Source: a phage. Taken from it: a stretch of 64,000 nt of DNA. A program made the position numbers and the translations under genes. The DNA is taken from assembly GCA_020619395.1 (NCBI GenBank), contig GCA_020619395.1_4860.1, one strand, 5' to 3'. This document shows, in pieces, positions 1 through 17,272 of this stretch. The notes beneath the pieces are model-generated. The model saw nothing but the letters and a program-made list of their open reading frames with translations, had not been told where the DNA came from and ran no database searches. How positions within the stretch are numbered: position 1 is the stretch's first letter; each line of letters opens with the position of its first letter.

Positions 1-392
1 CTACCCAGGCTGGTTTCTGCCTGACTGGTATAACCGGATACGATGTATTGCGTTTCCTGAGTGCGTGTTGCATTCAGAGGTTTAGCAATAAACACCGCCA
101 CGAAGTTAAAGATACCGGTATCACGTGATTCCCATTGGAACTGTACAGGACGATTGTCATCATCGGACACGTTGATGAATGGACGCTCAAAACCATTCTG
201 GGTGCCATCGAAGCCCACGATGGCAGATAATGCTTCTTGATACTGCTGTGTTCCCACAGCTTTTTCCCCGCCCAGTTCAACCGCTGCTGCTAAGTCATCC
301 AGTGCACCCGTCGATGCGTTAAAGCCGATGCGGCGACGAACTTGCTCTGGAACATCGTAGACCGGATACATCAGTAGATTTACAAGCTGCAT
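1..392 (-). CDS. hypothetical protein, N-terminal 130 codons; gene continues beyond the window start
   Basis: ATG at 392-390 preceded by AAGGAG in the conserved leader TTAAGGAGTATTTAAA; hand translation (MQLVNLLMYPVYDVPEQVRRRIGFNASTGALDDLAAAVELGGEK...) runs to position 1 without a stop. Confidence 0.5.
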   Translation of the reverse strand, partial: MQLVNLLMYPVYDVPEQVRRRIGFNASTGALDDLAAAVELGGEKAVGTQQYQEALSAIVGFDGTQNGFERPFINVSDDDNRPVQFQWESRDTGIFNFVAVFIAKPLNATRTQETQYIVSGYTSQAETSLG

Positions 393-404
393 TTTAAATA
401 CTCC

Positions 405-2039
405 TTAAGAATTAAACCATTCAACTTCTTCTAACTTGCGACGTGCATTCAACACCATAAACTCCGCCAGGCTATTGTGCAGTGACAAGTGAGGTATATA
501 GTTTGGCTGATCCGTCTCACACTTCAGCAGCGCAGCTGCTTCTGGTGTAGCCCTGAGATGGAACAGATACGGGTTGATGTGATCCTTGTGTAACAAGGTC
601 AATGATTCCCGTGGTGTAGATTGCGGTTCGAGATTACGCGGGTTGCGATACTCCTGAAGATAATATCTATCTAAATCTGCTTTGAGTTCAGATCGAATTG
701 GGTCGGCTGCATAACCGGCAGACATCTCAGAACGCACCATATTGCAACTTAACAGTTGCGCAACGTCATACATTCCATAATTGAGATAAGTTGCCTGTGC
801 CAACGCCATACCGTAGCGAAACGCTTCTGGTCCACATTCAGTATACGTCTTATAATGCGCGCTACGATGGAGTGCTAATGCGACTAACCATTCGTGCAAC
901 GTATAGACAGGACCGTCATGTGTTGCCAGTTGCGAATCAATCAATAACTTAACATCTGCTGGAGCGGCATTATCCAGACGCATTGTTTTCAAGAAAGAGC
1001 GGTATTCTTTAAATACGTACTCGGTACGGACGTATTCTTTCATCTGTGCAGGAGAACGTGCCTGCACCAAATCCATGGCGTTTATCTTACCCTTTTCGCC
1101 ATTGAATACCACACTTTCCGGATGCGCTTTTAACAGCACCGGCTGGTTAGAGATTTTGTTTGCAAAACCTGTTTCAATCTCTTGTTTAACCAGAAAATAC
1201 ATGCCGGTGACGATATTGTTGTTAACCATGATTTCAACCGGTAATTCACCACCGACTTCACGGACAGCCAACAATTTAATAATAGCATACGCCAGGATAT
1301 AATCTTCCATCATATCCGTGCCATAGCCCCGCACCGTAGCCAGTACCGACAAACTGGTGCTGTTCGTACCTTTGTTTGCCAGTTCTTTTTCTACCTTTTC
1401 CATCACTGTCTGTAGGAACCCACGCAGTTTCGGAATAGCAGGTAAAGACATGACTTCCGTGTCTTGAAGCATCTCCAGACAGTATGTCAGATTGTACACC
1501 ATTTTCCGGTGTGTTTCGATTGGCAAGTTCTTACCTATCGGGAACGTCCCCATGGTGAGGAACACCGGAATATACGGTTTAATCATCAGGACCAGTATCA
1601 ACAACTCGTAATAGTCCGGACGAATGTACGTCATCGCTTCCGGATAATTACTGTTCATTTCATCGTGCGTATCTTCCATGTTCTGCGGAATCCACAGCTT
1701 ATCGATGGGATACAGCTTACGATACACTTCGGCCTTGTGGAACTTCGCAATCGTCTGCACAATCTTCGGCATGTGCTTACGCTGCGTTTCCGTCGATTCG
1801 TTTGCCAGCTCGTCCAGCATCAGATACGCCATGAACAGTTCATCTTGTTCGTCTGGCGTTAAATAATCCCACACGCGTTGTAATTCCATGAAGAGAATGT
1901 TGTCGCGTGCAATCTGTTTACCTTTAACAGTGATGTAGTCGGGTGCGTTGTTATCCTTCCGATAACGTAAGCCAATAAATGTGACCTCTTGACCATGATG
2001 CTCGATTGTCATCCGGTCTTTAATCTTCATAATTTTCAT
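405..2039 (-). CDS. hypothetical protein (544 aa)
   Basis: long ORF; GGAG about 8 nt upstream of ATG; promoter-like motif at 2075-2089. Confidence 0.7.
   Translation of the reverse strand: MKIMKIKDRMTIEHHGQEVTFIGLRYRKDNNAPDYITVKGKQIARDNILFMELQRVWDYLTPDEQDELFMAYLMLDELANESTETQRKHMPKIVQTIAKFHKAEVYRKLYPIDKLWIPQNMEDTHDEMNSNYPEAMTYIRPDYYELLILVLMIKPYIPVFLTMGTFPIGKNLPIETHRKMVYNLTYCLEMLQDTEVMSLPAIPKLRGFLQTVMEKVEKELANKGTNSTSLSVLATVRGYGTDMMEDYILAYAIIKLLAVREVGGELPVEIMVNNNIVTGMYFLVKQEIETGFANKISNQPVLLKAHPESVVFNGEKGKINAMDLVQARSPAQMKEYVRTEYVFKEYRSFLKTMRLDNAAPADVKLLIDSQLATHDGPVYTLHEWLVALALHRSAHYKTYTECGPEAFRYGMALAQATYLNYGMYDVAQLLSCNMVRSEMSAGYAADPIRSELKADLDRYYLQEYRNPRNLEPQSTPRESLTLLHKDHINPYLFHLRATPEAAALLKCETDQPNYIPHLSLHNSLAEFMVLNARRKLEEVEWFNS
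657..671. promoter_or_regulatory. copy of recurrent promoter-like motif AGATAATATCTATCT, inside the 3' end of the 405-2039 ORF
   Basis: exact match to the motif found in five intergenic sites; lies 265 bp upstream of the gene starting at 392. Confidence 0.3.
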
Positions 2040-2074
2040 TATAGTTGAACTCCGCGAATAGTCGATTGCACTGA

Positions 2075-2089
2075 GATAATATCTATCTC
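2075..2089. promoter_or_regulatory. promoter-like motif AGATAATATCTATCT
   Basis: intergenic, 36 bp from the start codon at 2039; same 15-mer as at 657. Confidence 0.4.
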
Positions 2090-2174
2090 AATCTTCTTAC
2101 AGTGTGTGTTGCAGGACCACGCATAAGCGTTAATAGCCCAAGGTTTCCCTTGGGCGTATTTTTTATTTTGTTTC

Positions 2175-2834
2175 TTAGAGGAATTCGTCGTAAGAATCAG
2201 TGGTTGCTGGAGGTGCAGATTGTTGCTGCTGTTGATAACCGCCGCCGCTACGCTGACCACCACCCTGGCCACCACCGTATCCACCACGACCGAAGCTACC
2301 ACCACCTTGCTGGAATTCACGCGGCTTATATTTCTCTTCCAGGTTCTGTAAGAACTTCTCGAAGTTAGTGATAAACGCACGTGCGCAGCGCTCGGCAAGT
2401 TCTAAATCAGAAACCTGCTGGCCGTCGCGGAAAATACGGAAACCTTTCGGGTAGGAGAAGTAGAACTTCTTCTGGCGGGCACCAACGCCCTGGATTTCAC
2501 CGGCAATAGCGATGAACGGTAACAGGTTGTCTTCACGGCCAACAATCAGACTAACGGGCGGTTTGTTGCCGTTTTCGTTAGTAAACTTCAGCATACTCTT
2601 TTCGCTCTTACGCAGACAATCCTGCAGAGCTTCGATAATGGTACGGCAAACCGTAATCGGCGCAGAGAAATAGAGACCTTCGCCCTTACCAAAGGAGTAG
2701 CTAAACTTCATAGTTTCAACATCACCGTTGAAATCATTCGGTTCGATGTTGAGTTTACGCGTACGGTTTTGCTGATCCGGTTCGGTCTGCGGGTAAAGCC
2801 ATTTGTCTTTGAAAATTTCTTGGTTAATCATCAT
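2175..2834 (-). CDS. putative single-stranded DNA-binding protein-like (Gly/Gln-rich linker and acidic C-terminal tip)
   Basis: C-terminus GGGSFGRGGYGGGQGGGQRSGGGYQQQQQSAPPATTDSYDEFL resembles the SSB flexible linker plus acidic tail; start moved to the ATGATG at 2834 preceded by AAGGA. Confidence 0.4.
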   Translation of the reverse strand: MMINQEIFKDKWLYPQTEPDQQNRTRKLNIEPNDFNGDVETMKFSYSFGKGEGLYFSAPITVCRTIIEALQDCLRKSEKSMLKFTNENGNKPPVSLIVGREDNLLPFIAIAGEIQGVGARQKKFYFSYPKGFRIFRDGQQVSDLELAERCARAFITNFEKFLQNLEEKYKPREFQQGGGSFGRGGYGGGQGGGQRSGGGYQQQQQSAPPATTDSYDEFL

Positions 2835-2899
2835 TTCATCCTTTTCGGAAAAGCAGTCTAGTGGTTCACACATGATGTCCCACTAACGTAAATTTTAAC

Positions 2900-3736
2900 T
2901 TACTTCATAAGCCTGCGGAGCAGTTCAATTACAAATGGCTCATTCACCAGTTTTAGACAGTTATAAATACGGTCCATTGTGGTATCCTGTTTCCAGCTGT
3001 ACTTCTCTGCGGTTTTTAACACCACCCCACGCGTTTTGCGATCGAGGGGTGAAAACATTATCCCGTCGCCAAACAACGTCAGGAACGCTTTGTTAAACGG
3101 AATATGTTGGGGTTTCCCGTTAAGTTTGGTGTACCACTCCAGTTGTGTTTTCACTTTACCGGTGTGCGATTCCAACAAACCCAGTTTAGGGAAATCTTTA
3201 CGTGCCAGGAGATCAGCTGGCATGTGGGTCAGTAACAGTGTGTCGCGGCTACCCTCTGGGAAAACATCGAATTGACGGAAGTCATTTTCGTGTTTCTCAC
3301 CGTACATTTTTAAGGTGTCGTGTTCCAGTGCATTATAGTGCAGCTGGTTTGGCGTCATCTTATCCTGACCGCCTGCAATGTTTTTGAACGAGGCTTCGGG
3401 AAACACTTTGTTAGCGCTACGATAGCTACAAAGGTACGGAACGCATAACACCGAAGGGGCTACCGCTCTCGCGGTAGCCGTAAGATTATTAATATCTTCT
3501 TCAATCGATGTTAGCATCACGTCGGGTGTTAACCGTTCTCTATTCTCTTCAAACGCATAGAAGGCGTTACGGAACAATGTCCGGAGATTCAGGTATATTT
3601 CCTGATAGGAATGGATAGGCAATTCGCCTTTCCAGTCGGCGTATTCGCCGGTATGCAGCAGACCTTCAAACGCCAGCGAACTGGCGATTGACACTGAATA
3701 GAACCCGAAAGTGCGATCAACACTGATTGGATTCAT
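2900..3736 (-). CDS. hypothetical protein (278 aa)
   Basis: long ORF with AGGAAA upstream; start overlaps the stop of the upstream gene by 4 nt. Confidence 0.65.
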   Translation of the reverse strand: MNPISVDRTFGFYSVSIASSLAFEGLLHTGEYADWKGELPIHSYQEIYLNLRTLFRNAFYAFEENRERLTPDVMLTSIEEDINNLTATARAVAPSVLCVPYLCSYRSANKVFPEASFKNIAGGQDKMTPNQLHYNALEHDTLKMYGEKHENDFRQFDVFPEGSRDTLLLTHMPADLLARKDFPKLGLLESHTGKVKTQLEWYTKLNGKPQHIPFNKAFLTLFGDGIMFSPLDRKTRGVVLKTAEKYSWKQDTTMDRIYNCLKLVNEPFVIELLRRLMK

Positions 3737-4884
3737 TCTATTTTCCTAATGATTGCAGTAACAACATCAGGGTCGTACTTCACTGATGTTAGCTCTTCGA
3801 GAACCAACCGTTCGAAGTTCTCAGGAGTAGGTTTTTCGTACACTGGGGCTTCGTTCGAAAAACTCTTTACTAACAACTCCTCTTCTTCAGAGGAGCGCAC
3901 ACGTTCTCCAGATATGTGGAACGTGTATTCTTTTTTCCACCGACTGACGTATTCGGCCATCGGTGAACCTGCGTAATACTCGACTTCAAATCGTCCAATA
4001 GCGGACGAAGGATGATTGTCGATGTATTCTAATGCAGAAAGACAAGCTGCTAACTGCGCATCAAAGTCTTCCTGTGCCCGAATCTTTTTCTGCGGGCACG
4101 CGCGTGGGTTAACCAGGAAATAATCCCTGGCAACCGTATCGGTGAAATCGACAAGAGCTACGCCTTTGTCCTCCTCTTCACCTTGAGATAGCCGCTCAGG
4201 ACTACCTACAACTCTTATCTTGTCTAATTCTTTAGGTCGATGGTCGTGCCCGATAAATATCAGGTGCTTGACTCTCGGCAACCAGAACTCCTCGTGGAAA
4301 GAACGAGGGGACTCGACAGGGAGTTGAAACTGGAAGCAGCCGTGCATGAAGATAAAGTCTAACTTCTCCAAGCCTCGTGTCGCCATCAGTTCTGCCATTT
4401 CTGCCTCAGTGGCAGCAGCATTAATTTCATCGACGCCAGCAGCTTTATATTCGTCCTGCACCCAACCTACCATCGCATCGAGAGCCGGATCGTAAAATAT
4501 CCCGATCCCTGCCAAATACAAACAGTCTGCGCCTATACTGATGTTCAGCGACTCAACTATTTTGGACTGGCCATGGTCATGGGACGGTGTTCCCTCAACG
4601 ATGCGAACTGCGGTATTAGTGGCCTTAGACCACTGGAGCAACCACGTCAAGAAGCCCACAGCTTCTTGAGAATCTTCCTGGCGAAGATGTCGGGAATCAT
4701 CAAATAAATCCCCTGCTATATAAAAGGCATCAAGCGTATTTTCGCAGCTAATGAGTACCTCACGTATCACATCCACGATGTGCCAAGTAGGCACACGTTT
4801 ATGCAACAAATGGATATCGTTAGTGTTCAAAAGGCGCTTAACGCCTTCTGGTTTCTTAGGAGGTTTAGTAATCTTCTCCATCAC
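3733..4884 (-). CDS. SbcD/Mre11-like metallophosphoesterase nuclease
   Basis: calcineurin-like phosphoesterase motifs in order: NDIHL, IAGDLFDD, GTPSHDHG, FIFMHG, IGHDHRP. Confidence 0.65.
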   Translation of the reverse strand: MMEKITKPPKKPEGVKRLLNTNDIHLLHKRVPTWHIVDVIREVLISCENTLDAFYIAGDLFDDSRHLRQEDSQEAVGFLTWLLQWSKATNTAVRIVEGTPSHDHGQSKIVESLNISIGADCLYLAGIGIFYDPALDAMVGWVQDEYKAAGVDEINAAATEAEMAELMATRGLEKLDFIFMHGCFQFQLPVESPRSFHEEFWLPRVKHLIFIGHDHRPKELDKIRVVGSPERLSQGEEEDKGVALVDFTDTVARDYFLVNPRACPQKKIRAQEDFDAQLAACLSALEYIDNHPSSAIGRFEVEYYAGSPMAEYVSRWKKEYTFHISGERVRSSEEEELLVKSFSNEAPVYEKPTPENFERLVLEELTSVKYDPDVVTAIIRKIE

Positions 4885-5539
4885 CGATCCCTACGATTGG
4901 CTGCGTTTGAGCTGGGGCTTGCACCGAGGTCTCTGCAGCTGTCGCCGTGTTTTTACCGCCGGTAATTTTATCGACGTATTCAACCAACCCTTCCGGATAT
5001 GGCAATTGACCACCCACACCGTAGCGTCGGAAAATCCAGTTCAGCAAGTCAATAATGTACTTCGCACGAACTGAATTTTCAGCCAGTGACATATTTTCGA
5101 TCCCGGTTAGGGTGTAATCGATCATCTTGTACATCTGGGTTTCACCGACGGTTGCAATCACATCAACCTGACGACGGATGTACTCAGTCTCATCGGAGAG
5201 TGAAGGTTCGCCGTCAACGGTGATTAATGAGCGGCCGGTGTTCAACAGAGCAGGGATGGTAAATAGCAGTTTGCTGTTATCAGCATCGTCCACAATCTGC
5301 AGGGGTACAAATGGACTTCCTACGTAAGCCGTCCAGGTCTCTTCGTTAAAAGTACCATCAAGCATACCGGACAACAGTGGTAAGCCCTGGCGACGGAACT
5401 GTGCTTCGGTGAACACACTGCAAACGTTCTGGCTTTCCGCCAAATCGTTTTCAATCTCTTTGAGTTTGTTATACTCAAAGCGCATCTGCTCATTCATCTG
5501 ACTTAACGGTACACCGTTAAATGTAGGTTCCTGGCTCAT
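4865..5539 (-). CDS. hypothetical protein (224 aa)
   Basis: ORF in the minus-strand gene series. Confidence 0.6.
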   Translation of the reverse strand: MSQEPTFNGVPLSQMNEQMRFEYNKLKEIENDLAESQNVCSVFTEAQFRRQGLPLLSGMLDGTFNEETWTAYVGSPFVPLQIVDDADNSKLLFTIPALLNTGRSLITVDGEPSLSDETEYIRRQVDVIATVGETQMYKMIDYTLTGIENMSLAENSVRAKYIIDLLNWIFRRYGVGGQLPYPEGLVEYVDKITGGKNTATAAETSVQAPAQTQPIVGIGDGEDY

Positions 5540-5925
5540 TACATATCCTCAATCGCACTCGACTCGGTATCCACGTACCGCTCAACATCGTACCATTCAC
5601 CGTCTACAACTTCTTGCACACGGACACTAATGAAGATGCGGTAGCGCACATCTGAATCTTTTAAAAACTCCCAGCTGGTTTCAACTTCAACGCCAGCAGG
5701 AAATACGTTCCCGTAGAGGTTCTCCAAATCCATTTTAATCTGGGCAACCATCCCGTCGGGATCTTGTGCAAACACAGCTTGCGTATACGCAAGTGATTTA
5801 ATGTTCCCACGATAAACCACCGATTGGCTATAGCCAGACTCGGTGTAATGGTTCATCAGCTCACGCGCCTTTTCCTGGGGTGTACGTGCCCAGCCACGTG
5901 TGGATAAGGTTCCTACCGCAATCAT
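5539..5925 (-). CDS. hypothetical protein (about 128 aa; start moved to internal ATG)
   Basis: internal ATG at 5925 has AGGAG 5 nt upstream; the listed longer ORF would read through a terminator hairpin. Confidence 0.5.
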   Translation of the reverse strand: MIAVGTLSTRGWARTPQEKARELMNHYTESGYSQSVVYRGNIKSLAYTQAVFAQDPDGMVAQIKMDLENLYGNVFPAGVEVETSWEFLKDSDVRYRIFISVRVQEVVDGEWYDVERYVDTESSAIEDM

Positions 5926-5970
5926 GTTAGCTCCTGTCAAATTCAAGGTAGGATGCTGCATACAGCCCCC

Positions 5971-6010
5971 AGTGAAGAAAAAAAGAGGGGCCGAAGCCCC
6001 ATCTTTTTTA
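5971..6010 (-). terminator. intrinsic terminator (A-run, GGGGC-CGAA-GCCCC hairpin, T-run; could act in both directions)
   Basis: hairpin 5987-6000 flanked by A-tract and T-tract, just downstream of the gene ending at 6008. Confidence 0.55.
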
Positions 6011-6589
6011 ACACGTCGCGCCAAGTTCCGAACAGGGATCACCATCTTCCCAGTCGAAAGCTGACATGCGTGCCCAGTTAAGTTGAATATCCACTTTATC
6101 GATTCGACTCAGTCGTACTGCACGATCTTCATTGGTAGCCCATTGCCAAATCTTATCTTCGTCGTACTTCGTCGAAATGCCCGATGTTGCTTCGCGGAAG
6201 TGGTCATCGGTACGCATATACGCATTGCCTTTGAACACATCCAACCGCGAAAAGCCGTTCTCATAACCAGTCGCCATACCGTCATTATACAACTTACGAT
6301 ATTCCGGCATGGCAACGAGGAATGGCTGTAAAGCAGCATTGGCGAACTGGAATTCACCCAACTCTTCGATCTGTCTTACCATCTCTACCGCATCGCTATA
6401 ACGTAATTTACGTGCGGTACTGAATGTTTCACGGAAACGCTCCAGTGAGATTAAGTCCTGACAATGTTCTTTTACACGGTCAACGAGATCGGGTGCCAGG
6501 CTAGACAGCGAAAACGATTCTTTGAATACGCTGAGTGCCCCGCTACCTTCGGTCTGTTTCGTCCACACCGTGCTACCTTGTAGCCACAT
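6008..6589 (-). CDS. hypothetical protein (193 aa)
   Basis: ORF followed by a terminator hairpin. Confidence 0.6.
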   Translation of the reverse strand: MWLQGSTVWTKQTEGSGALSVFKESFSLSSLAPDLVDRVKEHCQDLISLERFRETFSTARKLRYSDAVEMVRQIEELGEFQFANAALQPFLVAMPEYRKLYNDGMATGYENGFSRLDVFKGNAYMRTDDHFREATSGISTKYDEDKIWQWATNEDRAVRLSRIDKVDIQLNWARMSAFDWEDGDPCSELGATC

Positions 6590-6602
6590 TACAATACTCC
6601 TA

Positions 6603-8198
6603 TTAGCCCATCACCGCTTCCAACGGAATGCCTTCTTCATCATCCTCATCTGCTTCAATAAGGAACTGGTTCTGCATACTGATTAGCTCGTTATGTAAAA
6701 CCATGCCGTGTTCTACGCGGTCCACATCAGTAGAAGACATAAAGCCGTTATCTGGACGGAATTGGAGTGCCAACTTCATCTCAGTTTCATCGACTGGCAA
6801 ACGTACCTGGAACTGGTCGCCATCGAAATCTCCATTTGCCATCTTGATCACACGGTCAGAGATACGCAGCGAACACTGGTTAACATCGGTAACAACTTCA
6901 TCGATGTACAGCGTTTGAATAGACAACTGTACCAGCGTTGGGTTACGTAACGGTATGACCATGATCCCAAGACCGCCTGGGGATTCACGAATCAGTTCTT
7001 TAAAGATTTCATCTACAAGCGGGTCATACTGCATTGCCGCTTTCGCAACGATACGTTCACACTGCCGTGACGAATAACCGCGTCGTAGCAGTTTGTTCTC
7101 GATGTGGGTCGACATCAACCCAACCATCCAACGCCATGGTGCTTTTAACTTCCAGGCATCATGTGGTTCTGAGATAGGTGAGATGGTTGCACGACCACCG
7201 AACGGGATATGGGTAGAACCCAATTTCGCACGATAGTCACCCGGTTTACCTTCCATAGACTCACGACGGAAGTCCATGTGGAAGTACGTTAACTGACGGT
7301 TCGCCTTCAAAGCGCGACTAATCAGAAAACGTGGTTCGATCGCTTTACGCCGCGTATAGAGCAACGCGATATTTTTCACCGCATCAATAGCACCCGTGAA
7401 CACTGGGTCTACCATGACACCACGACGACCTTCCTCAGTAACGATAAGTTTAGAGGAGATTAGCGGTAAGTGTCTTGGGAAGAATGCGTGACGTTGCGTT
7501 TCGAATAGCTCCTTCCATTGTAAACGTAAGCGTTCACCTTCAGCGGCGTTATGCCGATTAGGTGCGAAGATTTCCTTCCAGGCTTCTGGCGTGGTAAGGA
7601 TGTTAAAGATACTAACGTGGTTATCAACCAGATTGCGCAAGCCACGAACGAAACCGTGTTCTTCCAATACACGTTTCACAGCATGTGCGCGTTTACCGTC
7701 TGGTTCTTCTATACGGTAATACGGGTCAATCATCCACATCATCAAGTCATTACCGCGTTCGATAGTGACCTTGTTACGTTCAAACTTCTTCAACTTGCTA
7801 TTAAAGAAAGCATTGAACATTGCCCAGAATCGTGGGTTGACGAAGTTACCCATTTCATCAGGTGCACGTAACCAGACATCGGATTCAATTCGATGTTCAG
7901 TTACAACATAGCCACACGTCGGACACTTACAACCGAGATTGTAACGATGCGCGATCGGTGCCGGACAATCCAAACTACAAATCGGTGCAGAGTTCAGTTC
8001 TTCGTCAACGATTCTGTTCTGTACCATGCGATCGATAAGTTCAGCAACTTCGATCGCATCCCCGTTAACGGCGACATCGTTAATAATAGTGGGTGGTTTA
8101 ATACCTTTGGCTGCAGCTTCTATTTGCAAATCGGACAAATAGTTATCCTGACTAACCAACCGGCCGGATATTCCGTAGAATTTTGGTACCTTTCTCAC
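6603..8198 (-). CDS. multisubunit RNA polymerase beta-prime N-terminal-like subunit (probable non-virion RNAP)
   Basis: Cys4 cluster CSLDCPAPIAHRYNLGCKCPTCG near the N-terminus; RNPTLVQLSIQ...MANGDFDGDQFQVRLP matches the bacterial beta-prime RQPTLHRLGIQ...NADFDGDQMAVHVP catalytic segment; GTG start with GAGG upstream. Confidence 0.7.
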   Translation of the reverse strand: MRKVPKFYGISGRLVSQDNYLSDLQIEAAAKGIKPPTIINDVAVNGDAIEVAELIDRMVQNRIVDEELNSAPICSLDCPAPIAHRYNLGCKCPTCGYVVTEHRIESDVWLRAPDEMGNFVNPRFWAMFNAFFNSKLKKFERNKVTIERGNDLMMWMIDPYYRIEEPDGKRAHAVKRVLEEHGFVRGLRNLVDNHVSIFNILTTPEAWKEIFAPNRHNAAEGERLRLQWKELFETQRHAFFPRHLPLISSKLIVTEEGRRGVMVDPVFTGAIDAVKNIALLYTRRKAIEPRFLISRALKANRQLTYFHMDFRRESMEGKPGDYRAKLGSTHIPFGGRATISPISEPHDAWKLKAPWRWMVGLMSTHIENKLLRRGYSSRQCERIVAKAAMQYDPLVDEIFKELIRESPGGLGIMVIPLRNPTLVQLSIQTLYIDEVVTDVNQCSLRISDRVIKMANGDFDGDQFQVRLPVDETEMKLALQFRPDNGFMSSTDVDRVEHGMVLHNELISMQNQFLIEADEDDEEGIPLEAVMG

Positions 8199-8212
8199 TC
8201 TGTCAACCTCAA

Positions 8213-8252
8213 CAAAAAAAGAGGGAAGGACGGAGGCGTTAGCCCCCGTCCG
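8213..8252 (-). terminator. intrinsic terminator
   Basis: GGACGG...CCGTCC hairpin followed on the minus strand by a 7-nt T-run, downstream of the gene ending at 8281. Confidence 0.55.
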
Positions 8253-8280
8253 TTTCCTAACTACTCAGTAACCGATTCGA

Positions 8281-10134
8281 TTACAGTTTGAAGTTGCTCA
8301 GAGACACGCCCAGACCGAAATCGGAACCGCTTGCAGACAGGCCGTTGCCAGACAGCGTGAAGTCTTCCCCACCGTTGTTGAAGAACAGAGAGGTCGCCAT
8401 CGTGTTGTAGGCATTTACACCAGTCATAGACCAGGTGCAGTTGTTACGGACGAAGTCCAGCAGGCATTTACCGAAGATCGGGTTGATAGCCATATCCAGA
8501 GATTCACCGGTAGCTTGCGGTGCTTTGGATGCGAACAGAGAAGCGGCCAGTTTCAGCATGTAGATACGCTGTTGACGCTCGTTCAGTTCACGGTGGCTGT
8601 AGGACTGTGCGTTCAGGTAGCTATAGACGTCGTTCGCGTTATCACCCAGTTTGGTAACAACGGAAATCAGGTCCATATCCTGGAAGCTACGTTTCTGTGC
8701 AGTACCGGTGTAAACACCGGAAACAGTCGGTACGGCTGCTTTCACGATGTGGCTGCAATGGATGGTACCATTGAAGGCATCGCCCAGCTGTGCTTTCAGT
8801 GCAGAAGCAAATACTGCAGTGAAGCTGGTCGCTGCAACAACTTCGCCGTTCTGATCACGCGGGGACATGGAATTCAGAATAGCGAGCAGCTGTTTCAGAG
8901 AGTTGTCGTAACCGACCGCAATTTCAGACAGCATAGTAGACAGACCACCCAGACCGTTACCGGCACGATGGCTAACTACCAGTGCTGCTTCACGCGGTGC
9001 GAACATATCCAGGCAACCTTCGATAGCTTCACGGCTACCGTCGATTTTGGATACATCAGGACGAGCGTCAGCACCCCAGGACAGGTATTCTGCCACACGG
9101 GAGAACTTGCGATCTTGTTTGTTCAGACGTTTCACAAACAGGTCACGCCAGCCACCGATTGCCGCGATTTCTGCAAATGCAGCCAGCAGCAGCAGTTGAC
9201 GTTCATACGGTGCCATTGCACCTTCAGTTTGAGAATCGACCAGACTTACTACGATTTCAGCCTGCAGCTGTTTCAGGTCGTAGACGCCGTTAACGACAGG
9301 CTTCTGACCGGTGAAACGCATGTTGACGAAACCAGTACCGGATACACGCGGATACACCTGTACCTGATTGGTGTCCAGCAGAGTCGGAGTGGCGTCGGAT
9401 ACGTTGCTTGGGCTGTGCTCAACGGTGATTGCGAAATCAGCACGTTGTGCGTGGCCGTTAGCATCCACAACCGCACCATCTTCCAGCGGCATTACTGCAG
9501 CCTGATAACGGTCATGCTTACGCAGGTTCAGCGTACCCAGGTAGCCTGCGATACGACCGAAGATGCCCATCATCATCTGACCCATCAGAGTACGTGCCCA
9601 CTCAGCATCCAGAACTTTACCCAGGTCTGGTACGGAGTTGATGATCATGAAGTTCGCATTGGTCAGACCATGCGCTTCCATGATGTTTTTCTGTACTACT
9701 GCCAGCACGTCTTTGTTGAACAGTTCAGTGATGGTGTAGTAGTCTTCCTGGCCGTTGTTGGTAGTTTCTTTCAGACGCAGAGACTGACCGCGTTCAAAGA
9801 AGATAATACCGTACAGCCAGTGGCCCTGCCATTGGCCTGCGACATACGCCGCGGAACCCATTTCGTTACCCACGCCGGCGATGGTGCCCCAGCGGAACGC
9901 GTTGAGGTATTCGTTGCTTTTCTTCAGCTCGTCCAGGAGGTTGACGAAGTGCATTGCATAGGTGCTGATGTTGCGGATGCCAAATGCGTTATCGAATTGG
10001 CTGACAGTAGAAGTACCCGGCACAGCAGTTTGCACTTTTACAGTCTCGTTGCCCAGACCGCCCAGTGGTGCGGTGTCTTGAGTCTGAGTGTTGTTCTGCT
10101 GAGCGTTGTTGTTAGAGTCAACGATTTTTACCAT
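8281..10134 (-). CDS. abundant early or structural protein (617 aa); candidate phage-nucleus shell protein (chimallin), alternatively a capsid protein
   Basis: stand-alone unit with its own promoter-like motif, conserved leader TTAAGGAATATTTAAA-ATG and terminator; adjacent to the beta-prime-like gene as in the phiKZ gp54/gp55 arrangement recalled from memory; no sequence motif confirmed. Confidence 0.35.
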   Translation of the reverse strand: MVKIVDSNNNAQQNNTQTQDTAPLGGLGNETVKVQTAVPGTSTVSQFDNAFGIRNISTYAMHFVNLLDELKKSNEYLNAFRWGTIAGVGNEMGSAAYVAGQWQGHWLYGIIFFERGQSLRLKETTNNGQEDYYTITELFNKDVLAVVQKNIMEAHGLTNANFMIINSVPDLGKVLDAEWARTLMGQMMMGIFGRIAGYLGTLNLRKHDRYQAAVMPLEDGAVVDANGHAQRADFAITVEHSPSNVSDATPTLLDTNQVQVYPRVSGTGFVNMRFTGQKPVVNGVYDLKQLQAEIVVSLVDSQTEGAMAPYERQLLLLAAFAEIAAIGGWRDLFVKRLNKQDRKFSRVAEYLSWGADARPDVSKIDGSREAIEGCLDMFAPREAALVVSHRAGNGLGGLSTMLSEIAVGYDNSLKQLLAILNSMSPRDQNGEVVAATSFTAVFASALKAQLGDAFNGTIHCSHIVKAAVPTVSGVYTGTAQKRSFQDMDLISVVTKLGDNANDVYSYLNAQSYSHRELNERQQRIYMLKLAASLFASKAPQATGESLDMAINPIFGKCLLDFVRNNCTWSMTGVNAYNTMATSLFFNNGGEDFTLSGNGLSASGSDFGLGVSLSNFKL

Positions 10135-10180
10135 TTTAAATATTCCTTAATAGTGATTGCAATCATAGTTCGGTTCGCAG

Positions 10181-10195
10181 AGATAATATCTGCCT
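10181..10195. promoter_or_regulatory. promoter-like motif AGATAATATCTGCCT, 47 bp upstream of the minus-strand start at 10134
   Basis: member of the recurrent AGATAATATC family in a divergent intergenic region. Confidence 0.4.
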
Positions 10196-10273
10196 GTAAT
10201 TTCATGGAATGCAAGTACGCCGTCGCTTACTTACAAGGCACATAGTCCAGACATTTCTCAGGAACTGTCACAT

Positions 10274-10288
10274 AGATAATATCAATCT
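10274..10288. promoter_or_regulatory. promoter-like motif AGATAATATCAATCT, upstream of the plus-strand gene at 10341
   Basis: second copy in the same divergent intergenic region. Confidence 0.4.
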
Positions 10289-10340
10289 GAGATATTTTTG
10301 ACTGTGACTGACTTCCTATGTGGAATCTAAGGAGTCTGCC

Positions 10341-11408
10341 ATGTTCAGCCAAGCCGAGTTAAACCAAGTGGCCATAAAGGGTCACAGCACGGACCCCTCC
10401 GCTATAACATTAGCGGCTCACGTAAAAAACAACAGCCAGCGTATACGCAACTACTACGAACAGCTTAATCGCAGTGCTGGTAATGGCCATTTGTTGCAAC
10501 AGGTGTTGTCTGCCATCGGCTATGCCGGTGAACCAGAGTACGAAGACATCGAATGGGCTTGCCGTCGCAAGCTTGTTCAGATTGGTAACGCCTTACGCTT
10601 GACGTCTGTTGGTGAGTACGGTCAAATCTTTAATAGCAAGTTTATCCAGGGCCAAGATGAGGTAATCTCTCTCGTAGCCCGCCCAGTAAATCCAGACCTT
10701 TCGTTCCGCGACTACACCCCCGCCCGTTACCTCTACCATGAGTATACCAACCTCAATTGGAAGTTCGGTGACGGACGGCCCCGAGGTGTTACGGTGATCG
10801 AAATCAACCTGGTTGCTTTGCTTTGGCAATATGTCAAAGGTCAGCAACACTACAGTCGCGGTACCGAACCTATTGCCACACCTGTGTATCTCCAACGACA
10901 TGTGATCTCTCGCATGTTGCCGAGCTACATGGATATCGCCTTTGTAAATATACATCGTGCGATAGCCTTCGGGAAAGAGATTGAACCGGATGAAACATTA
11001 CGTGTCATTCCTGTTCCACCGCTTCAAGCTTTAGCTGTGAAGCACGCAAAAGGCATCCGTAGTAAACTACTGGCTGCCAACCCGTTACCGGGACAAGTCT
11101 TAAACAACATCCCATTGTTCTTCCAACACCCTGATGAAGAAGGCCACACAGCACTGGAACTGATTGTCTTTCGAGAACCAGGTCAAACACTGCAGAACAC
11201 CTGGCACCAGAACATGGTGAACTGGTACTGGGCACTGTTTTGTCTTCAATACAACCAGGGGAATATGGAAAAGCATAAACGTACGATGTTGGTTGATTTG
11301 GCGCGTTATGTGGACTCTAAAGTCCTCACACGTCTGACCAAATCCTTCTATAACTTTATCCAACGGGATTTGATTATCCCGTTGACGACAGAGCTAGAAG
11401 AAAAATAA
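10341..11408 (+). CDS. hypothetical protein (about 355 aa)
   Basis: ATG at 10341 preceded by AAGGAG; the listed ORF begins at an upstream GTG; followed by a UUCG-loop terminator. Confidence 0.6.
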   Translation: MFSQAELNQVAIKGHSTDPSAITLAAHVKNNSQRIRNYYEQLNRSAGNGHLLQQVLSAIGYAGEPEYEDIEWACRRKLVQIGNALRLTSVGEYGQIFNSKFIQGQDEVISLVARPVNPDLSFRDYTPARYLYHEYTNLNWKFGDGRPRGVTVIEINLVALLWQYVKGQQHYSRGTEPIATPVYLQRHVISRMLPSYMDIAFVNIHRAIAFGKEIEPDETLRVIPVPPLQALAVKHAKGIRSKLLAANPLPGQVLNNIPLFFQHPDEEGHTALELIVFREPGQTLQNTWHQNMVNWYWALFCLQYNQGNMEKHKRTMLVDLARYVDSKVLTRLTKSFYNFIQRDLIIPLTTELEEK

Positions 11409-11458
11409 GACTTACTCTCTCCTCGCGAACACTCTTTCGAGTATTCATACTATATACA

Positions 11459-11500
11459 AAAACTACACACTTCGGTGTGTAGTTCTTTTTTTTATTTTTT
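11459..11500 (+). terminator. intrinsic terminator (ACTACACAC-TTCG-GTGTGTAGT hairpin plus T-run)
   Basis: perfect 9-bp stem with UUCG loop followed by a long T-tract. Confidence 0.65.
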
Positions 11501-11506
11501 GTCTGT

Positions 11507-11707
11507 CTAGTATTTTATCGTCTCCGTGAAGTCACTTGCGTATGGTTTACCCCACACAGTGATACTACGTTTCCGTTTGGCATCCAATGCCGTGATATGC
11601 ACCGTTTCGCCTGCCTGATGTAACTCAATATCCACGCAACCCCGTTCTTCGAGGTCGCGACGGATTGCGGTTATCATCTCTGTGGACTTCCCACTATTTC
11701 GATACAT
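11507..11707 (-). CDS. small hypothetical protein (66 aa)
   Basis: short ORF only. Confidence 0.3.
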   Translation of the reverse strand: MYRNSGKSTEMITAIRRDLEERGCVDIELHQAGETVHITALDAKRKRSITVWGKPYASDFTETIKY

Positions 11708-11763
11708 ACCCTTCCACCCCCGTAACGGTTATTGTTTGTGGTACACACGATCGTGACTTATTC

Positions 11764-14043
11764 TTACTCCTCCGCTTCTTCCCCATCCTCTTCCTCTCCA
11801 TCACGTTCAGATTTCTTAACGTACTCGCCGCTACCTAATTCTTCCTTGACCGAGTCTACGGACTCGCCGTAGTAATCCGAAAGCAGACGAGTTCTGTTCT
11901 TGTCCATCATGAAGACACCCAGACATTCCAGGATGTGATAGTAAGGTTCTACTGTGGAGAATGCGCTTCGACGTGTGTCTGCAGCATCAATCAGCTCCGG
12001 AGGAATACCGAAGTTTTCCACCAAGAACTCTGGCAGTATCAGAGTACGATAGGTGCGATAGTTGTTCTCTTCGAACCACCGTGTTGCAGTGGTCTTAATC
12101 ATCGGGTCTTTAATGTTTTCCAGCCACTCTTTAACGGCTGTTTTGTTCTCCAGGTTTACCGGAAGTTTCACGGCGTCATAAGGCGGTTCGTCCAGGTAGC
12201 CGTACTTCGGTCCAAAGATGGCGTTGTACATGCGGTGATAGTGGTAGCTCTTTTCATCATCTTCAGAGTACGCACTACGGTCTTTGACGTTGGTTGTTTT
12301 CAGGTAGCCTGCTTTACCAGCGCGAATAGAATCCACCACAACGTGCTCAATTGCAGCAACCTTTTCCAGCAGAGGCAGAATCTTAATCTTGTCACCACGT
12401 GCCACGATCTCACAGAGTTCTTTAATCGTGCGTTTGAACTCTTTCATGACCACCGGAGGAATGTTCGACGTACGTAAAGACACGCCCTTAACTTCTAACT
12501 CAGGGTCAGACTTCAACTGCCCTTCCTGGCCAGTGATGATGGAGAAATAGTGTTTTGCTTTCGTGGTTAACGCAAAGGAGTCGAACTTAAATTCGTTCTT
12601 CATTGCGTACAAAAACAGACGCTCTTTCGCCACACCGATATTCGCCGACATACTCGCCATCAGATGACGTAAGTGCTGGGTTGCGATATAAATCATCGCA
12701 TCCGATACGCGCGTAGCTTCACGACCGTAATGTTGGCCGGTATACCACTGCGCCCACCACTGTGCAGTCATCATCGTGGAGTCGGTATCAGACACCACGC
12801 CGACACGACGAACCACGTCGGGCATCCTGGCAATGTTGATTGGCAGGTTTTTGGTGGTCAGGATATTACGAATCAAGCACGCGTACTTACCGATGGTTTT
12901 CTGCAGATACACAGCTGAGCGAATCAGCTCTTTGTATTTTTCCTGCTTATCCCACGGTTCCGCTTTGTTCGTGTTTTCGTCTTTGAGTTTAACGTCAGAG
13001 AACGACTTACCTAACGGCACGATATCAGTACGGAACTGCGAGATAATGATCTGCATGTCACCGTCGATAGAGCGCTCAGCGGCATCCCAATCAGTGATCT
13101 CGTCTTCCATCTCCTCGGCAATCAGCGCGCCGATAAATCCGCGCATGAATTCATCGTTGTATTTCGCCAGGTGGTAGAAGTCACCCATGTAGACAAACGC
13201 TGCACGTACCAGCGGGCTACAATTACCGACGTAGTGACGAATGAACTCCAGCCCTTCGTCGTTACGGAAGTAAAACTCTGCAGAGTACATAACCACTTCC
13301 ATAACCTCGTCCACTGTTGGGTAGTGGAGGTTATAGAGTTCCATACACTTCTTGAACTCCGCAAAGTTAGTCAGTGTACCGATAGAAAGTAGGTGGTCGA
13401 TAACACGGGACGGCGTGTCGTAGTGACGATTACCGCCCAGTAGACGTTCGTTGCCCGCGTTACCGAACGATGTAGCCGTACGGCAGGTTGACGTCAATAC
13501 AGAGTGCGAGGACTGGTTAAAGATTACCGTGTACGGTGATGAGAATGCACCCGACATTCCGTTGTTCAACGTCTTAACAGCGTTCTGTTCGTTCTTTTTG
13601 TTAATACGCAGAACTTCATTACCCGCAGCACCTGCTGCGTACATCTCTTTCTTAACGACCGCACGCTTACGCACGTTCTCTGCGGTAAATTCAGCAAGCT
13701 TAGAGCGCTTGACGTGCTCAGGCAGATAAAAGGTCAGCGACGGTGCAGAAATAATCTGCTTATCAATCACTGTACGGAACAGTTTATCTACCGTGGTGTA
13801 TTTTTCTTCGCGATCGCCGGTCTTTTGATTGCGCACCCACATCTTACACACGGGGAATTCGTGTACTAACTCACCACCAGGTTGGAACATTTCTTCGACC
13901 TGCTGTCGACAGAACTCCAAAGAATATTTCCCGTTGGTGACGGTATGAATGTAGAGCGCCAGTTGTTCGTAGTACGCATCGATAACGTCAATGTCGCGAT
14001 GATACTCGTCTTGACTAAGACGAAATGGTGAATTGTAGTCCAC
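11764..14043 (-). CDS. large hypothetical protein (759 aa), acidic C-terminus; function unassigned
   Basis: long ORF; has VVSDTDS and KTLNNGMSG segments but no coherent polymerase motif set. Confidence 0.6.
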   Translation of the reverse strand: MDYNSPFRLSQDEYHRDIDVIDAYYEQLALYIHTVTNGKYSLEFCRQQVEEMFQPGGELVHEFPVCKMWVRNQKTGDREEKYTTVDKLFRTVIDKQIISAPSLTFYLPEHVKRSKLAEFTAENVRKRAVVKKEMYAAGAAGNEVLRINKKNEQNAVKTLNNGMSGAFSSPYTVIFNQSSHSVLTSTCRTATSFGNAGNERLLGGNRHYDTPSRVIDHLLSIGTLTNFAEFKKCMELYNLHYPTVDEVMEVVMYSAEFYFRNDEGLEFIRHYVGNCSPLVRAAFVYMGDFYHLAKYNDEFMRGFIGALIAEEMEDEITDWDAAERSIDGDMQIIISQFRTDIVPLGKSFSDVKLKDENTNKAEPWDKQEKYKELIRSAVYLQKTIGKYACLIRNILTTKNLPINIARMPDVVRRVGVVSDTDSTMMTAQWWAQWYTGQHYGREATRVSDAMIYIATQHLRHLMASMSANIGVAKERLFLYAMKNEFKFDSFALTTKAKHYFSIITGQEGQLKSDPELEVKGVSLRTSNIPPVVMKEFKRTIKELCEIVARGDKIKILPLLEKVAAIEHVVVDSIRAGKAGYLKTTNVKDRSAYSEDDEKSYHYHRMYNAIFGPKYGYLDEPPYDAVKLPVNLENKTAVKEWLENIKDPMIKTTATRWFEENNYRTYRTLILPEFLVENFGIPPELIDAADTRRSAFSTVEPYYHILECLGVFMMDKNRTRLLSDYYGESVDSVKEELGSGEYVKKSERDGEEEDGEEAEE

Positions 14044-14092
14044 GTCTGGCCCCTTGGTTTTTTACTCAGCTATAAGACTTGCGGGATACGTG

Positions 14093-14128
14093 AAAAAAGA
14101 AAAAAAATAACCCACTCCGAAGAGTGGG
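14093..14128 (-). terminator. intrinsic terminator (CCCACTC-CGAA-GAGTGGG on plus, UUCG loop on minus, then T-run)
   Basis: hairpin 14111-14128 with adjacent A-tract, downstream of the gene ending at 14135. Confidence 0.55.
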
Positions 14129-14134
14129 CTTACT

Positions 14135-14545
14135 TTAACCGGCAATACTCTCAACGATTTCAAAATCGACGTCATTGAAACCATTGGCAGCCAGGGCACG
14201 TTTAAGGTCGTCAATCTCCTGTTTGTTATCCAGGGTGACGGTGAAGCGCACCTTCGTGTTTTCGATAATCTGAACATCACGAATCCAGGCATCGGCAGCG
14301 ACTTTTGGTTTGCCGTCAACACCTTTGAAAATCAGATACGTGTATTTGTTCACATTATCTTCTGGCTGGGAAACAATGGAAGAGTAGATATTCTTCTGCT
14401 CCGCCATCACATCCATATAACTTTTGGCCATCTCGTAGCCAACGCCGGTTGCCAGAATAATTACACGCGTCTCTTGCCCTTTCAAAGGGGTGTCGTAAAC
14501 AATGTTAACTTTTTGCCCAGCGACCAGTGTGCGTAAATCGAACAT
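14135..14545 (-). CDS. hypothetical protein (136 aa)
   Basis: ORF in a tightly packed minus-strand block. Confidence 0.55.
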   Translation of the reverse strand: MFDLRTLVAGQKVNIVYDTPLKGQETRVIILATGVGYEMAKSYMDVMAEQKNIYSSIVSQPEDNVNKYTYLIFKGVDGKPKVAADAWIRDVQIIENTKVRFTVTLDNKQEIDDLKRALAANGFNDVDFEIVESIAG

Positions 14546-15144
14546 TATTCCTCCTCAGGAACATCAATAAGCAGCCTCATATCCAAAGCATTGGTCACTG
14601 GTGTTTTCGGGAAGTCCACCTTGAGAACCAACGTACGGATAGCGCCATTATGCGCCTCTAAGAACATCTTCACCGGCTCAACATAATGCGCCATAACTGC
14701 CTCCGTTACGGCGGTCGCCATTAGATCCAACGTGTAGTGCTTGAGCGTGGCCCAGTGTGAGCTGTCTTGCTCTTTGTACATCAACGCTAAATCTAACAAT
14801 GGTGTCAGCCCGTTAAAATGTGACTCGGTGCTGGCTTCCATTGCAACATTAAACTTCCACCGACGGTACTCGTCAGTCAGTAACGTAAAGAAGTCGTGCA
14901 AGAACGTAAGGTCGGTGCGAGGCAACATGCAACGAAACTCGTACGTATAGCTAGTCAGTGTTTCACGTATAAGTTCGTGTATCTCGTCCTGGTCCAATTC
15001 TTTTACGGGTATCTCCACGGTGATACGCGGCAGGCGGACTACGGTGTCAACCACCAAATCCAAAAACCGCATACCGTCCGGAAGATACCCCACGACCCCC
15101 AAGTCCACATTAATCAAGTGGTTGGCGATCACCTTGTAGATCAT
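14545..15144 (-). CDS. hypothetical protein (199 aa)
   Basis: ORF; stop/start overlap with neighbour. Confidence 0.55.
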   Translation of the reverse strand: MIYKVIANHLINVDLGVVGYLPDGMRFLDLVVDTVVRLPRITVEIPVKELDQDEIHELIRETLTSYTYEFRCMLPRTDLTFLHDFFTLLTDEYRRWKFNVAMEASTESHFNGLTPLLDLALMYKEQDSSHWATLKHYTLDLMATAVTEAVMAHYVEPVKMFLEAHNGAIRTLVLKVDFPKTPVTNALDMRLLIDVPEEE

Positions 15145-15153
15145 TCGTACTCC

Positions 15154-15585
15154 TTAACATTCAACACAGATGAGTGCGTTGCCAATTTCATTCATAAGGA
15201 GTGAAACCTTTGTCTTTTTTGCTCCGTCTTCTGGAGTCAAGCCAGCCATGCCCCACACACGTTCTATCACGGAAAGGATTTCATAGAACCGAACATCATC
15301 CTTAATCCCACTGCTCATGCTGTAGCAGTTTAGAGGCAGCACCTTTTCAGTACCCCACATCCCGCGCAACTGTTCCAGTATCAACGCAGGGTCTGGGGGA
15401 ATAAAAGTAAGAAAGTTCTTACCCTTACCTAGCCCATTAACAATAGAACGAACCGTTAATTCGGCGTAACTGGCCAGAAACAAATAAGCGACAGCGGGCT
15501 CGATCTCGCTAGTATCAGCAATCTCGGCCCGTGCCAACAACGACTCATATTTGAAGACTTCGCCTATGGTCATGTACAGTTTCAT
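15154..15585 (-). CDS. hypothetical protein (143 aa)
   Basis: ORF in series. Confidence 0.55.
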   Translation of the reverse strand: MKLYMTIGEVFKYESLLARAEIADTSEIEPAVAYLFLASYAELTVRSIVNGLGKGKNFLTFIPPDPALILEQLRGMWGTEKVLPLNCYSMSSGIKDDVRFYEILSVIERVWGMAGLTPEDGAKKTKVSLLMNEIGNALICVEC

Positions 15586-16070
15586 TCGCAGATTAACACC
15601 ACATCGTTAAAACTATCACCTACATACGTTTGATATCGACCCGGATACAGCGACTCTATCAATCCAGCGAAACCAGTTAAGTTTGTTAACTCTTCGACCA
15701 ACAAACTTACCGCAGCGCCGAAGGCAGCTTGATGTTGTTCGGGCGAACCTTGTGCTGCCAGAAACGTCGTATCGACAGACATTTCTTTAGCGAACTGGTC
15801 AACGGACAGACCATCGGTCACCAACTCCCAATTGCCCAGAGGTTCAAGCGTGTCTTCCTGTAACAAATCAACCATTGTCGATGGGTCACGAGTTTTCACA
15901 CCGATGATATACGCAAACGCAAAACGTTGATAAAAATCACGTATCTGCGTTTCATCAATCTCCAGGTTACTGGCTTCCAATACACGCAATGCTGCTTCGC
16001 GAACGTGCTCGTAAAACCGAGTCGCGCTATATTGGTTCGCAATATCCGCCACATCAAACAGAACGCTCAT
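15582..16070 (-). CDS. hypothetical protein (162 aa)
   Basis: ORF; 4-nt overlap with neighbours. Confidence 0.55.
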   Translation of the reverse strand: MSVLFDVADIANQYSATRFYEHVREAALRVLEASNLEIDETQIRDFYQRFAFAYIIGVKTRDPSTMVDLLQEDTLEPLGNWELVTDGLSVDQFAKEMSVDTTFLAAQGSPEQHQAAFGAAVSLLVEELTNLTGFAGLIESLYPGRYQTYVGDSFNDVVLICE

Positions 16071-16576
16071 ACACGACCTCCGAGATTACCGATAAGCAAA
16101 TCGATAACAGGCAGAAGTTGTGGGGTGATTCGCTCGTACGCTTCCTGGCTGGCAAACTGTGGGAATTTATCACCACCGTTATAGTCTAATAAGAATTCGA
16201 CATCCGCCGGATTGCGCGTTGTGTATTGTGCACCGACCCAACGACCGTAGTGAGTAAACCAATAAGGAGACTGCGATACGGCGGTCATATACGCACGACC
16301 GATGTTTTGAATTGCGGTGCCGTAAGTGATTACTTGCTCATTTTCCAACACAACGCCGTGCGCATTCAGTGTACGAGAAACAAACCCAAAGGTATTGTTC
16401 ATCATAAACTTTAACTCACTACCAATGGTTCCACGTTCCACGAAGCTCATGGCGGTATTGATTATCGAGTTCAAATCGTCATTCACTTCGCGGAGCACAT
16501 CGTTTGGCGAAAACTCCGTTAACGGCCCAGCCAATAACTGATAGCCGGGGATATAAAAATGAGATCGCTCAATCAT
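16067..16576 (-). CDS. hypothetical protein (169 aa)
   Basis: ORF in series. Confidence 0.55.
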   Translation of the reverse strand: MIERSHFYIPGYQLLAGPLTEFSPNDVLREVNDDLNSIINTAMSFVERGTIGSELKFMMNNTFGFVSRTLNAHGVVLENEQVITYGTAIQNIGRAYMTAVSQSPYWFTHYGRWVGAQYTTRNPADVEFLLDYNGGDKFPQFASQEAYERITPQLLPVIDLLIGNLGGRV

Positions 16577-17262: not shown

Positions 17263-17272
17263 GTCGCTGGGG

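Follow-up and report, generated by a model that had tools for sequence, protein, structure and literature searches.

In the Salmonella jumbo phage SPN3US, gp27 was identified as SbcD and gp186 as SbcC, and their genes were described as "drastically separated" (Thomas et al. 2016, PMC5105663). Amber mutation showed gp186 to be essential, and the essentiality of gp27 was deduced likewise (PMC5105663). Iyer et al. 2021 (PMC7824862) describe SbcC and SbcD as practically universal among jumbo phages. The homologous pair in phiKZ consists of gp65 and gp165, and further SbcD homologues are gp121 of 201phi2-1 and gp30 of EL. Prichard et al. 2023, in their table of core genes, label phiKZ gp065 a 'putative nuclease', gp066 'hypothetical' and gp165 'SbcC-like'. 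In an antisense screen of 2025, two core genes of phiKZ, 065 ('nuclease', ++) and 165 ('SbcC-like', +), showed phenotypes on knock-down (PMC12571901), and a transposon screen yielded no insertions in phiKZ orf165 (PMC12676376). The 'gp65-66' of PMC10643120 was considered as relevant and set aside, being a PhiPA3 RNA-polymerase gene under different numbering. The present analysis concerns a 64,000-nucleotide stretch of phage DNA (contig GCA_020619395.1_4860.1; the window hereafter, at its full length), and within it the open reading frame (ORF) 3733..4884 on the minus strand. With a probability of about 0.9, this ORF encodes the Mre11/SbcD subunit of an Mre11-Rad50-type (SbcCD-type) complex that the phage itself encodes, the gene for the partner lying far away.

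Over its first 12 kb, the window matched the SPN3US group (Seoulvirus) of Salmonella jumbo phages at 99.4%, and as a whole it corresponded to the reverse complement of SPN3US 25897..1 plus 240413..202903 at 96-99% identity. Judged by these alignments, the phage is a close relative of SPN3US, that is, a phiKZ-related, nucleus-forming jumbo phage of Salmonella belonging to the Chimalliviridae. No substantive difference between the two was seen at this DNA identity, small indels elsewhere being the only departures. The product of 3733..4884 was 99.7% identical at the amino acid level to SPN3US gp27 (21017..22165), annotated as 'SbcD-like subunit'. It is thus the gp27 orthologue; its neighbouring genes are the same, and it would be separated from the SbcC gene in the same way. 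The ORF has two candidate starts, the GTG at 4884 (first codon) and the ATG at 4881 (next codon), and ends at the TGA at 3733-3735. Since RefSeq and the 382-residue cluster representative (P0001) both use the ATG at 4881, and AGGGA sits 6 nt upstream of it, this codon, giving 382 residues, is the likelier start.

Besides its place in the ORF list, the coding sequence at 3733..4884 was identified by a PHROG match, a profile search against the PDB and a fold search. The protein matched PHROG_100 ('SbcD-like') with an E-value of 3e-64. When a family profile built from 29 homologues was run against the PDB, the top match was Mre11 of T. maritima (3qg5_C, E 4.8e-8, residues 19-333), followed by other Mre11 entries (2q8u, 3tho and 1ii7), Mre11 of P. 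furiosus being among the best matches, and by E. coli SbcD (6s6v) at 5e-6. Overall, Mre11/SbcD entries ranged from 5e-8 to 1e-4 in this search, and LpxH appeared at 0.06 or weaker. The AlphaFold (AF2) model of the protein had a predicted local distance difference test score (pLDDT) of 90.9 and a predicted template modelling score (pTM) of 0.81. In the Foldseek comparison of this model with the PDB, the first 24 matches were all Mre11/SbcD (E 1e-13 to 2e-7), and the next family was LpxH at 8.6e-5. The best match was E. coli SbcD (7yzo_A, E 1.1e-13), and Mre11 of T. maritima, human, S. pombe and C. thermophilum were also in the list. This large family comprises over 1000 clusters at 50% identity (E <= 1e-30). 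Its median length is 379 residues, and nearly all members are about 375 residues long.

The five calcineurin-like phosphoesterase motifs were located as follows, numbered by residues of the SbcD-like protein and with coordinates of the window on the minus strand: motif I, D23-I-H25 (4810-4818); motif II, G58-D59 (4708-4713); motif III, G98-T-P-S-H102-D103 (4576-4593); motif IV, H181 (4342-4344); and motif V, G212-H-D-H215 (4240-4251). In the alignment of the 29 homologues, which reaches down to 26% identity, the invariant columns coincided with the residues of these motifs. Therefore, the motif match represents a conserved feature and not a chance resemblance. Motifs I, II, IV and V were canonical and invariant across the homologues. 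Motif III, in contrast, deviated from GNH[DE]: the Asn is absent, Thr99 follows the Gly, and two residues are inserted before the His-Asp. Gly98-Thr99 was invariant among the homologues, Thr99 was kept across 189 family representatives, and EGTPSHD was found in 131 of these 189. The fourth position of the motif, residue 101, was occupied by S, L, G, R or K. Because position 101 varies and Thr99 does not, the conserved replacement of the Asn should be Thr99 rather than Ser101, which the hidden Markov model (HMM) alignment of the PDB profile search suggests. The non-canonical motif III probably underlies the poor scores that the curated Metallophos and SbcD models (Pfam Metallophos, NCBIfam SbcD) give to the family. 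A preliminary description of the window, made from its letters and ORF translations, had reported the five motifs in order at this ORF and had concluded on an Mre11-family nuclease. The motifs are indeed there, with the reservation that the third is non-canonical, and the family profile against the PDB and the Foldseek ranking bear out the assignment.

The predicted architecture was also that of SbcD/Mre11, the domain order in the model being nuclease, capping-like domain, linker and two terminal helices. The domain boundaries were read off the AF2 model by the author of the analysis. The calcineurin-like phosphoesterase (nuclease) domain covers residues 17-240 (4165..4836, minus strand), as indicated by the motifs, the invariant columns and the Pfam Metallophos matches within the family, of which 15 of the 29 members reached that model (best E 2.4e-5). 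It is followed by a capping-like alpha/beta domain at residues 241-343 (3856..4164, minus strand), with beta strands at 241-268 and 298-329, helices at 274-289, 309-319 and 332-343, and a pLDDT mostly above 90. The full-length Foldseek alignments to 7yzo_A (420 columns) and to 3qg5_C, together with the HMM alignment to residue 333, run through this capping region. The remainder (3736..3855, minus strand) consists of a flexible linker at residues 344-356 and of C-terminal helices at 357-367 and 372-382. In this part the pLDDT fell to 57-81 over about residues 340-383, and DSSP assigned the two terminal helices. In SbcD and Mre11, a C-terminal element of matching architecture is known to bind Rad50. 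The linker and the two terminal helices are thus a predicted Rad50/SbcC-binding helix-loop-helix.

The cellular counterparts, E. coli SbcCD and the Mre11-Rad50 complexes of T. maritima and P. furiosus (7yzo, 6s6v, 3qg5, 3tho, 1ii7), share with the phage protein the fold, the domain order and motifs I, II, IV and V. Nevertheless, phage SbcD and cellular SbcD/Mre11 are only 13-19% identical, and G-T-x-x-H-D stands in motif III of the former where the latter have G-N-H-D/E. Moreover, the cellular genes form an sbcDC operon, whereas the phage pair does not lie in an operon.

Several observations weigh against assigning the ORF to a phage Mre11-Rad50 complex. On its own, the window protein reached Pfam Metallophos only at E 0.033, which is below the cut-off, and the NCBIfam SbcD/Mre11 models gave short local matches below their curated cut-offs (SbcD equivalog, local E 5e-4). 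The canonical Asn metal ligand is gone, so that metal binding or activity could differ from that of a textbook Mre11. As to the complex, a gp186-like gene in the window's own genome is taken from relatives that are 96-99% identical, and the literature yielded no interaction, activity or localisation data on gp27 itself. A single-sequence PDB search with the protein also returned nothing relevant. Since the single-sequence Pfam, NCBIfam and PDB searches are too weak alone, it is the family profile and the fold that carry the assignment to the family.

On these grounds the protein might be thought another metallophosphoesterase, such as a phosphatase or an LpxH-like pyrophosphatase, or a dead structural protein, in which case 'SbcD-like' would be an annotation carried over. 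The sub-threshold Pfam score and the missing Asn of motif III would fit this explanation, and one metagenome source does name a homologue (P0005) 'LpxH'. However, whether the search was by profile or by fold, the E-values of Mre11/SbcD were 4-9 orders of magnitude better than those of every other metallophosphoesterase. The capping domain and the C-terminal helices are specific to Mre11/SbcD and lie within the full-length alignments, and the remaining metal ligands and the catalytic His are all invariant. We therefore regard another phosphoesterase or a dead protein as very improbable. By profile and by predicted fold, the product of 3733..4884 belongs to Mre11/SbcD, closer than to any other metallophosphoesterase family, although its altered motif III would leave some room for unusual metal chemistry.

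A partner ATPase was then sought around the gene. The nine ORFs flanking SbcD were scanned with Pfam and PHROG, and none matched an ABC or Walker A family. A six-frame scan of the window for Walker A found only two strings, one at residue 1340 of a 2378-residue stop-to-stop ORF whose SPN3US counterpart is annotated as a tail fibre protein, and the other in an ORF antisense to it. With SPN3US gp186 as query, tblastn against the window gave no match (best E 0.22), and phmmer gave none among all 348 window ORFs of at least 60 residues (best E 0.65). A diverged Rad50 inside the window was accordingly rejected, the Pfam and PHROG scans, the Walker A scan, tblastn and phmmer all being negative. In addition, no PADLOC defence-system model matched the nuclease or its two neighbours.

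The partner was found outside the region covered by the window, in SPN3US. The gene at SPN3US 168900..171410 encodes 836 residues and is labelled 'putative SMC domain-containing protein' in the record; it is gp186. The protein carries a Walker A motif, GGNGCGKT, at 36-43, a CPQC zinc hook at 413-416, in the exact middle of the 836 residues, and LLLDE (Walker B) near the C-terminus. Rad50/SbcC proteins are built as a split ABC ATPase, with Walker A in the N-terminal lobe and the signature motif, Walker B, D-loop and H-loop in the C-terminal one, on either side of a long coiled coil that has a CxxC zinc hook at its centre. It matched PHROG_77 ('SbcC-like') with E 3.7e-96, and its N-terminus matched Pfam SMC_N, AAA_15 and AAA_23 below their cut-offs. 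The best PDB matches were Rad50 of P. furiosus and C. thermophilum, across both ATPase lobes, and PADLOC matched gp186 to LmuB, JetC and DndD-type SMC/Rad50-like models, as expected of a Rad50 relative. The coiled coil of gp186 has been described in PMC5105663. Judged by these motifs and matches, gp186 is a Rad50/SbcC-type ATPase. At the position of the Rad50 signature motif SGGE, gp186 has 'SKAQ'. The gp186 gene overlaps a downstream ORF of 63 residues (PHROG_16515; the two genes lie within SPN3US 168900..171591), for which a predicted transmembrane domain was noted and which was likened to T4 gp47.1 (Thomas et al., PMC5105663).

The distance from gp186 to SbcD in the SPN3US record was 147 kb, or about 91 kb if a circularly permuted map is followed in the opposite direction. 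In the six genomes, from different genera, in which both positions were available (SPN3US, Asesino, SL2, 201phi2-1, RSF1 and pEt-SU), the two genes were 90-150 kb apart. By tblastn, an SbcD-like gene was detected in 290 phage records and an SbcC-like gene in 298. Broken down by host genus, the numbers for the two genes were almost the same; they (SbcD/SbcC) were 81/81 for Pseudomonas, 62/62 for Erwinia, 21/21 for Serratia, 19/19 for Aeromonas, 16/16 for Klebsiella and 13/13 for Ralstonia. Thus, the absence of an adjacent Rad50 gene is normal in phiKZ-like phages and is not evidence of an orphan nuclease.

The isolated Mre11/SbcD subunit has some Mn-dependent nuclease activity in vitro. Together with the fact that the two phage genes are neither adjacent nor co-transcribed and that the window holds no ATPase, this could be read to mean that the nuclease acts alone, or borrows the host SbcC, independently of a phage ATPase. 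Four lines of evidence stand against it. A phage Rad50/SbcC homologue co-occurs with the nuclease in about 290 phage records. In the model, the protein retains the C-terminal linker and two-helix element, which in known members has no role but Rad50 binding. Furthermore, gp186 is essential in SPN3US, and nucleus-forming phages are reported in the literature to keep most host proteins out of the DNA compartment. An independent or host-assisted nuclease is hence hardly probable.

The preliminary description had stated that no neighbouring ORF carries a Walker A or ABC signature, which agrees with the scans of the nine flanking ORFs. It had named a Rad50/SbcC profile search of the neighbours as a check; this search was run and was negative, and no neighbour turned out to be a diverged Rad50. 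It had also proposed a search for the partner beyond the neighbourhood, which led to the 836-residue SbcC-like gp186 of SPN3US at 168900..171410. Of the options that it left for the partner, a location elsewhere is the one that stands, given gp186 in SPN3US; a nuclease working alone or with a host factor is not needed, and is unlikely as the two genes co-occur. The separation of the SbcD and SbcC genes was already known and is stated explicitly in PMC5105663. The present result is therefore a correct reading of an already annotated gene, and the split between SbcD and SbcC has been in print since 2016.

Under the assignment to a phage SbcCD-type complex, the protein would form a two-metal phosphoesterase dimer that docks, via its C-terminal helix-loop-helix, on the coiled-coil base of the 836-residue gp186-like ATPase. 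ATP binding and hydrolysis in the ATPase would gate the access of DNA ends to the nuclease, and the nuclease would trim or nick ends and hairpins, thereby serving recombination and recombination-dependent replication in the manner of T4 gp46/gp47. Members of the Mre11/SbcD family are homodimers with Mn2+-dependent 3'-5' exonuclease and endonuclease activity. We infer that gp27 and gp186 interact, that the nuclease is active, that it takes part in replication and that it is located in the phage nucleus.

T4 gp47 (Mre11) and gp46 (Rad50) are likewise a phage-encoded pair expected to process ends for recombination-dependent replication, and the Rad50 subunit is essential in T4 and SPN3US alike. 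However, the T4 genes are clustered, with two small ORFs between them, whereas the SPN3US-type genes are about 90-150 kb apart. SPN3US SbcC is also larger than that of T4 (95.7 versus 63.6 kDa), with about 300 more residues between the ATPase lobes, and the two pairs have no similarity at the BLASTP level (PMC5105663).

The genes on both sides of SbcD are tightly packed on the same strand. The upstream gene (4865..5539, minus strand) resembles SPN3US gp26, has no known function, and was identified by the ORF list and a PHROG_5171 match; no Pfam match was found for it. Its 3' end overlaps the SbcD start by 17-20 nt. On the other side, the ATG of the downstream gene (2900..3736, minus strand) overlaps the SbcD TGA as ATGA. 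This gene encodes a 278-residue protein resembling SPN3US gp28, of the phiKZ gp66 family (PHROG_3229, 'unknown'), which had no Pfam match. Its homologues are phiKZ gp66, 201phi2-1 gp122 and EL gp31, and in the literature the phiKZ gp66-family gene is hypothetical or uncharacterised (Prichard et al. 2023; PMC12571901).

The model of the gp28-like protein had a pLDDT of 94. Foldseek gave it a weak match to T4 RNase H (E 5e-3, probability 0.96), followed by T5 D15. The gp28 family profile gave no FEN match in the PDB, the resemblance being seen by fold comparison only. Members of the FEN superfamily have a PIN-like alpha/beta core, a helical arch, a helix-three-turn-helix (H3TH) and a cluster of 7-8 metal-binding carboxylates. 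In the gp28 family this cluster is partly conserved, E189 being the sole invariant acidic residue, and an invariant Asn50 comes after the predicted strand 46-50. The gp28-like protein is predicted to have a FEN/5'-3' exonuclease-like fold; it could be a nuclease that has diverged, an enzyme of Okazaki-fragment processing or an inactive nucleic-acid-binding protein.

A gp66-like gene follows SbcD in every relative examined. It could be supposed that the distant SbcC, SbcD and the FEN-fold gp28-like protein form an end-resection module, an idea which extends the assignment of SbcD to a phage Mre11-Rad50 complex and does not replace it, but which we consider unlikely. The gp66-family protein would then be a divergent FEN/Exo1-like partner of the phage Mre11-Rad50 in the nucleus, acting in 5'-3' resection or in flap processing. 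This role, too, is doubtful. If it were true, the Chimalliviridae would possess a resection module of two nucleases, comparable with MRN plus Exo1 in eukaryotes. However, the block of chimallin, nvRNAP beta', SbcD, gp66-like, ChmC, gp68 and gp69 genes is syntenic in these phages, so that the adjacency of SbcD and the gp66-like gene is non-specific evidence and proves little alone. In RSF1 the two genes are separated by an additional ORF, and the phiKZ 066 knock-down phenotype is weak. The carboxylate cluster, with its invariant Asn50 and E189, is only partly conserved, and a FEN-like protein could equally process Okazaki fragments. Apart from such a module, a neighbouring core gene with a predicted nuclease-like fold may be relevant to replication or recombination in nucleus-forming phages, alongside the Mre11-Rad50 complex.

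Other members of the syntenic block were recognised in the window. The gene at 2175-2873 (minus strand) encodes a 232-residue protein with a Gly/Gln-rich tail, GGGSFGRGGYGGGQGGGQRSGGGYQQQQQ. It stands in the position of phiKZ gp67 and 201phi2-1 gp123 ('glycine rich protein'), that is, of ChmC, a nucleus-associated RNA-binding protein. SPN3US gp29 (24.5 kDa), the homologue of phiKZ ORF67, was reported to be essential. At 6603-8198 (minus strand) lies a gene for a split multisubunit RNA polymerase beta'-like subunit (PHROG_2987, with a weak match to Pfam RNA_pol_Rpb1_2). Its product carries NGDFDGD, a variant of the universal catalytic motif NADFDGD, and the gene has the chimallin gene on one side and the SbcD block on the other, an arrangement shared with RSF1 and the metagenomic relatives. 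The 617-residue protein encoded at 8281-10134 (minus strand; PHROG_8316) corresponds to the SPN3US locus gp244. SPN3US gp244 has been described as a highly diverged chimallin, the nuclear shell protein (Laughlin et al. 2022). No match was obtained when the 617-residue protein was compared with PDB sequences, with Pfam PF25677 (Chimallin_Phikzvirus) and, by phmmer, with two metagenomic chimallins. Since these searches were negative, its identity as chimallin is supported only by synteny and by Laughlin et al. 2022.

In phiKZ-type phages, the tblastn matches covered about 60% of the SbcD query, and a split or intron-interrupted SbcD gene was considered. This was rejected, as the annotated genes are full length (379-381 residues in SL2 and 201phi2-1); what tblastn misses is just the C-terminal half, where divergence is too great. 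Among the records of the Salmonella phages SPFM1/8/9/10/12/14/20, 'hypothetical proteins' of altered length were present (P0032, P0035, P0037, P0224, P0225 and P0231-P0233), which score high against SbcD or gp28, yet the BLASTP alignment covers only 6-28%. The match to SbcC in SPFM7 extends over no more than 4% of the query. These anomalies of the SPFM records look like frameshift or assembly errors.

The ends of the SPN3US GenBank record map to window positions 26430 and 26488, and the window bridges both. That the record ends inside the window fits a circularly permuted genome linearised at an arbitrary point. ARAGORN did not call in the window the second SPN3US-annotated tRNA, 'tRNA-OTHER'; one copy of tRNA-Trp (CCA) is present at 24014-24089 (minus strand), which corresponds to the annotated tRNA-Trp of SPN3US (1775..1847). 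Compared with SPN3US, about 310 bp from the region of ORF 13928..14209 are missing at window 11713-11719, and about 257 bp are extra at window 22666-22924.

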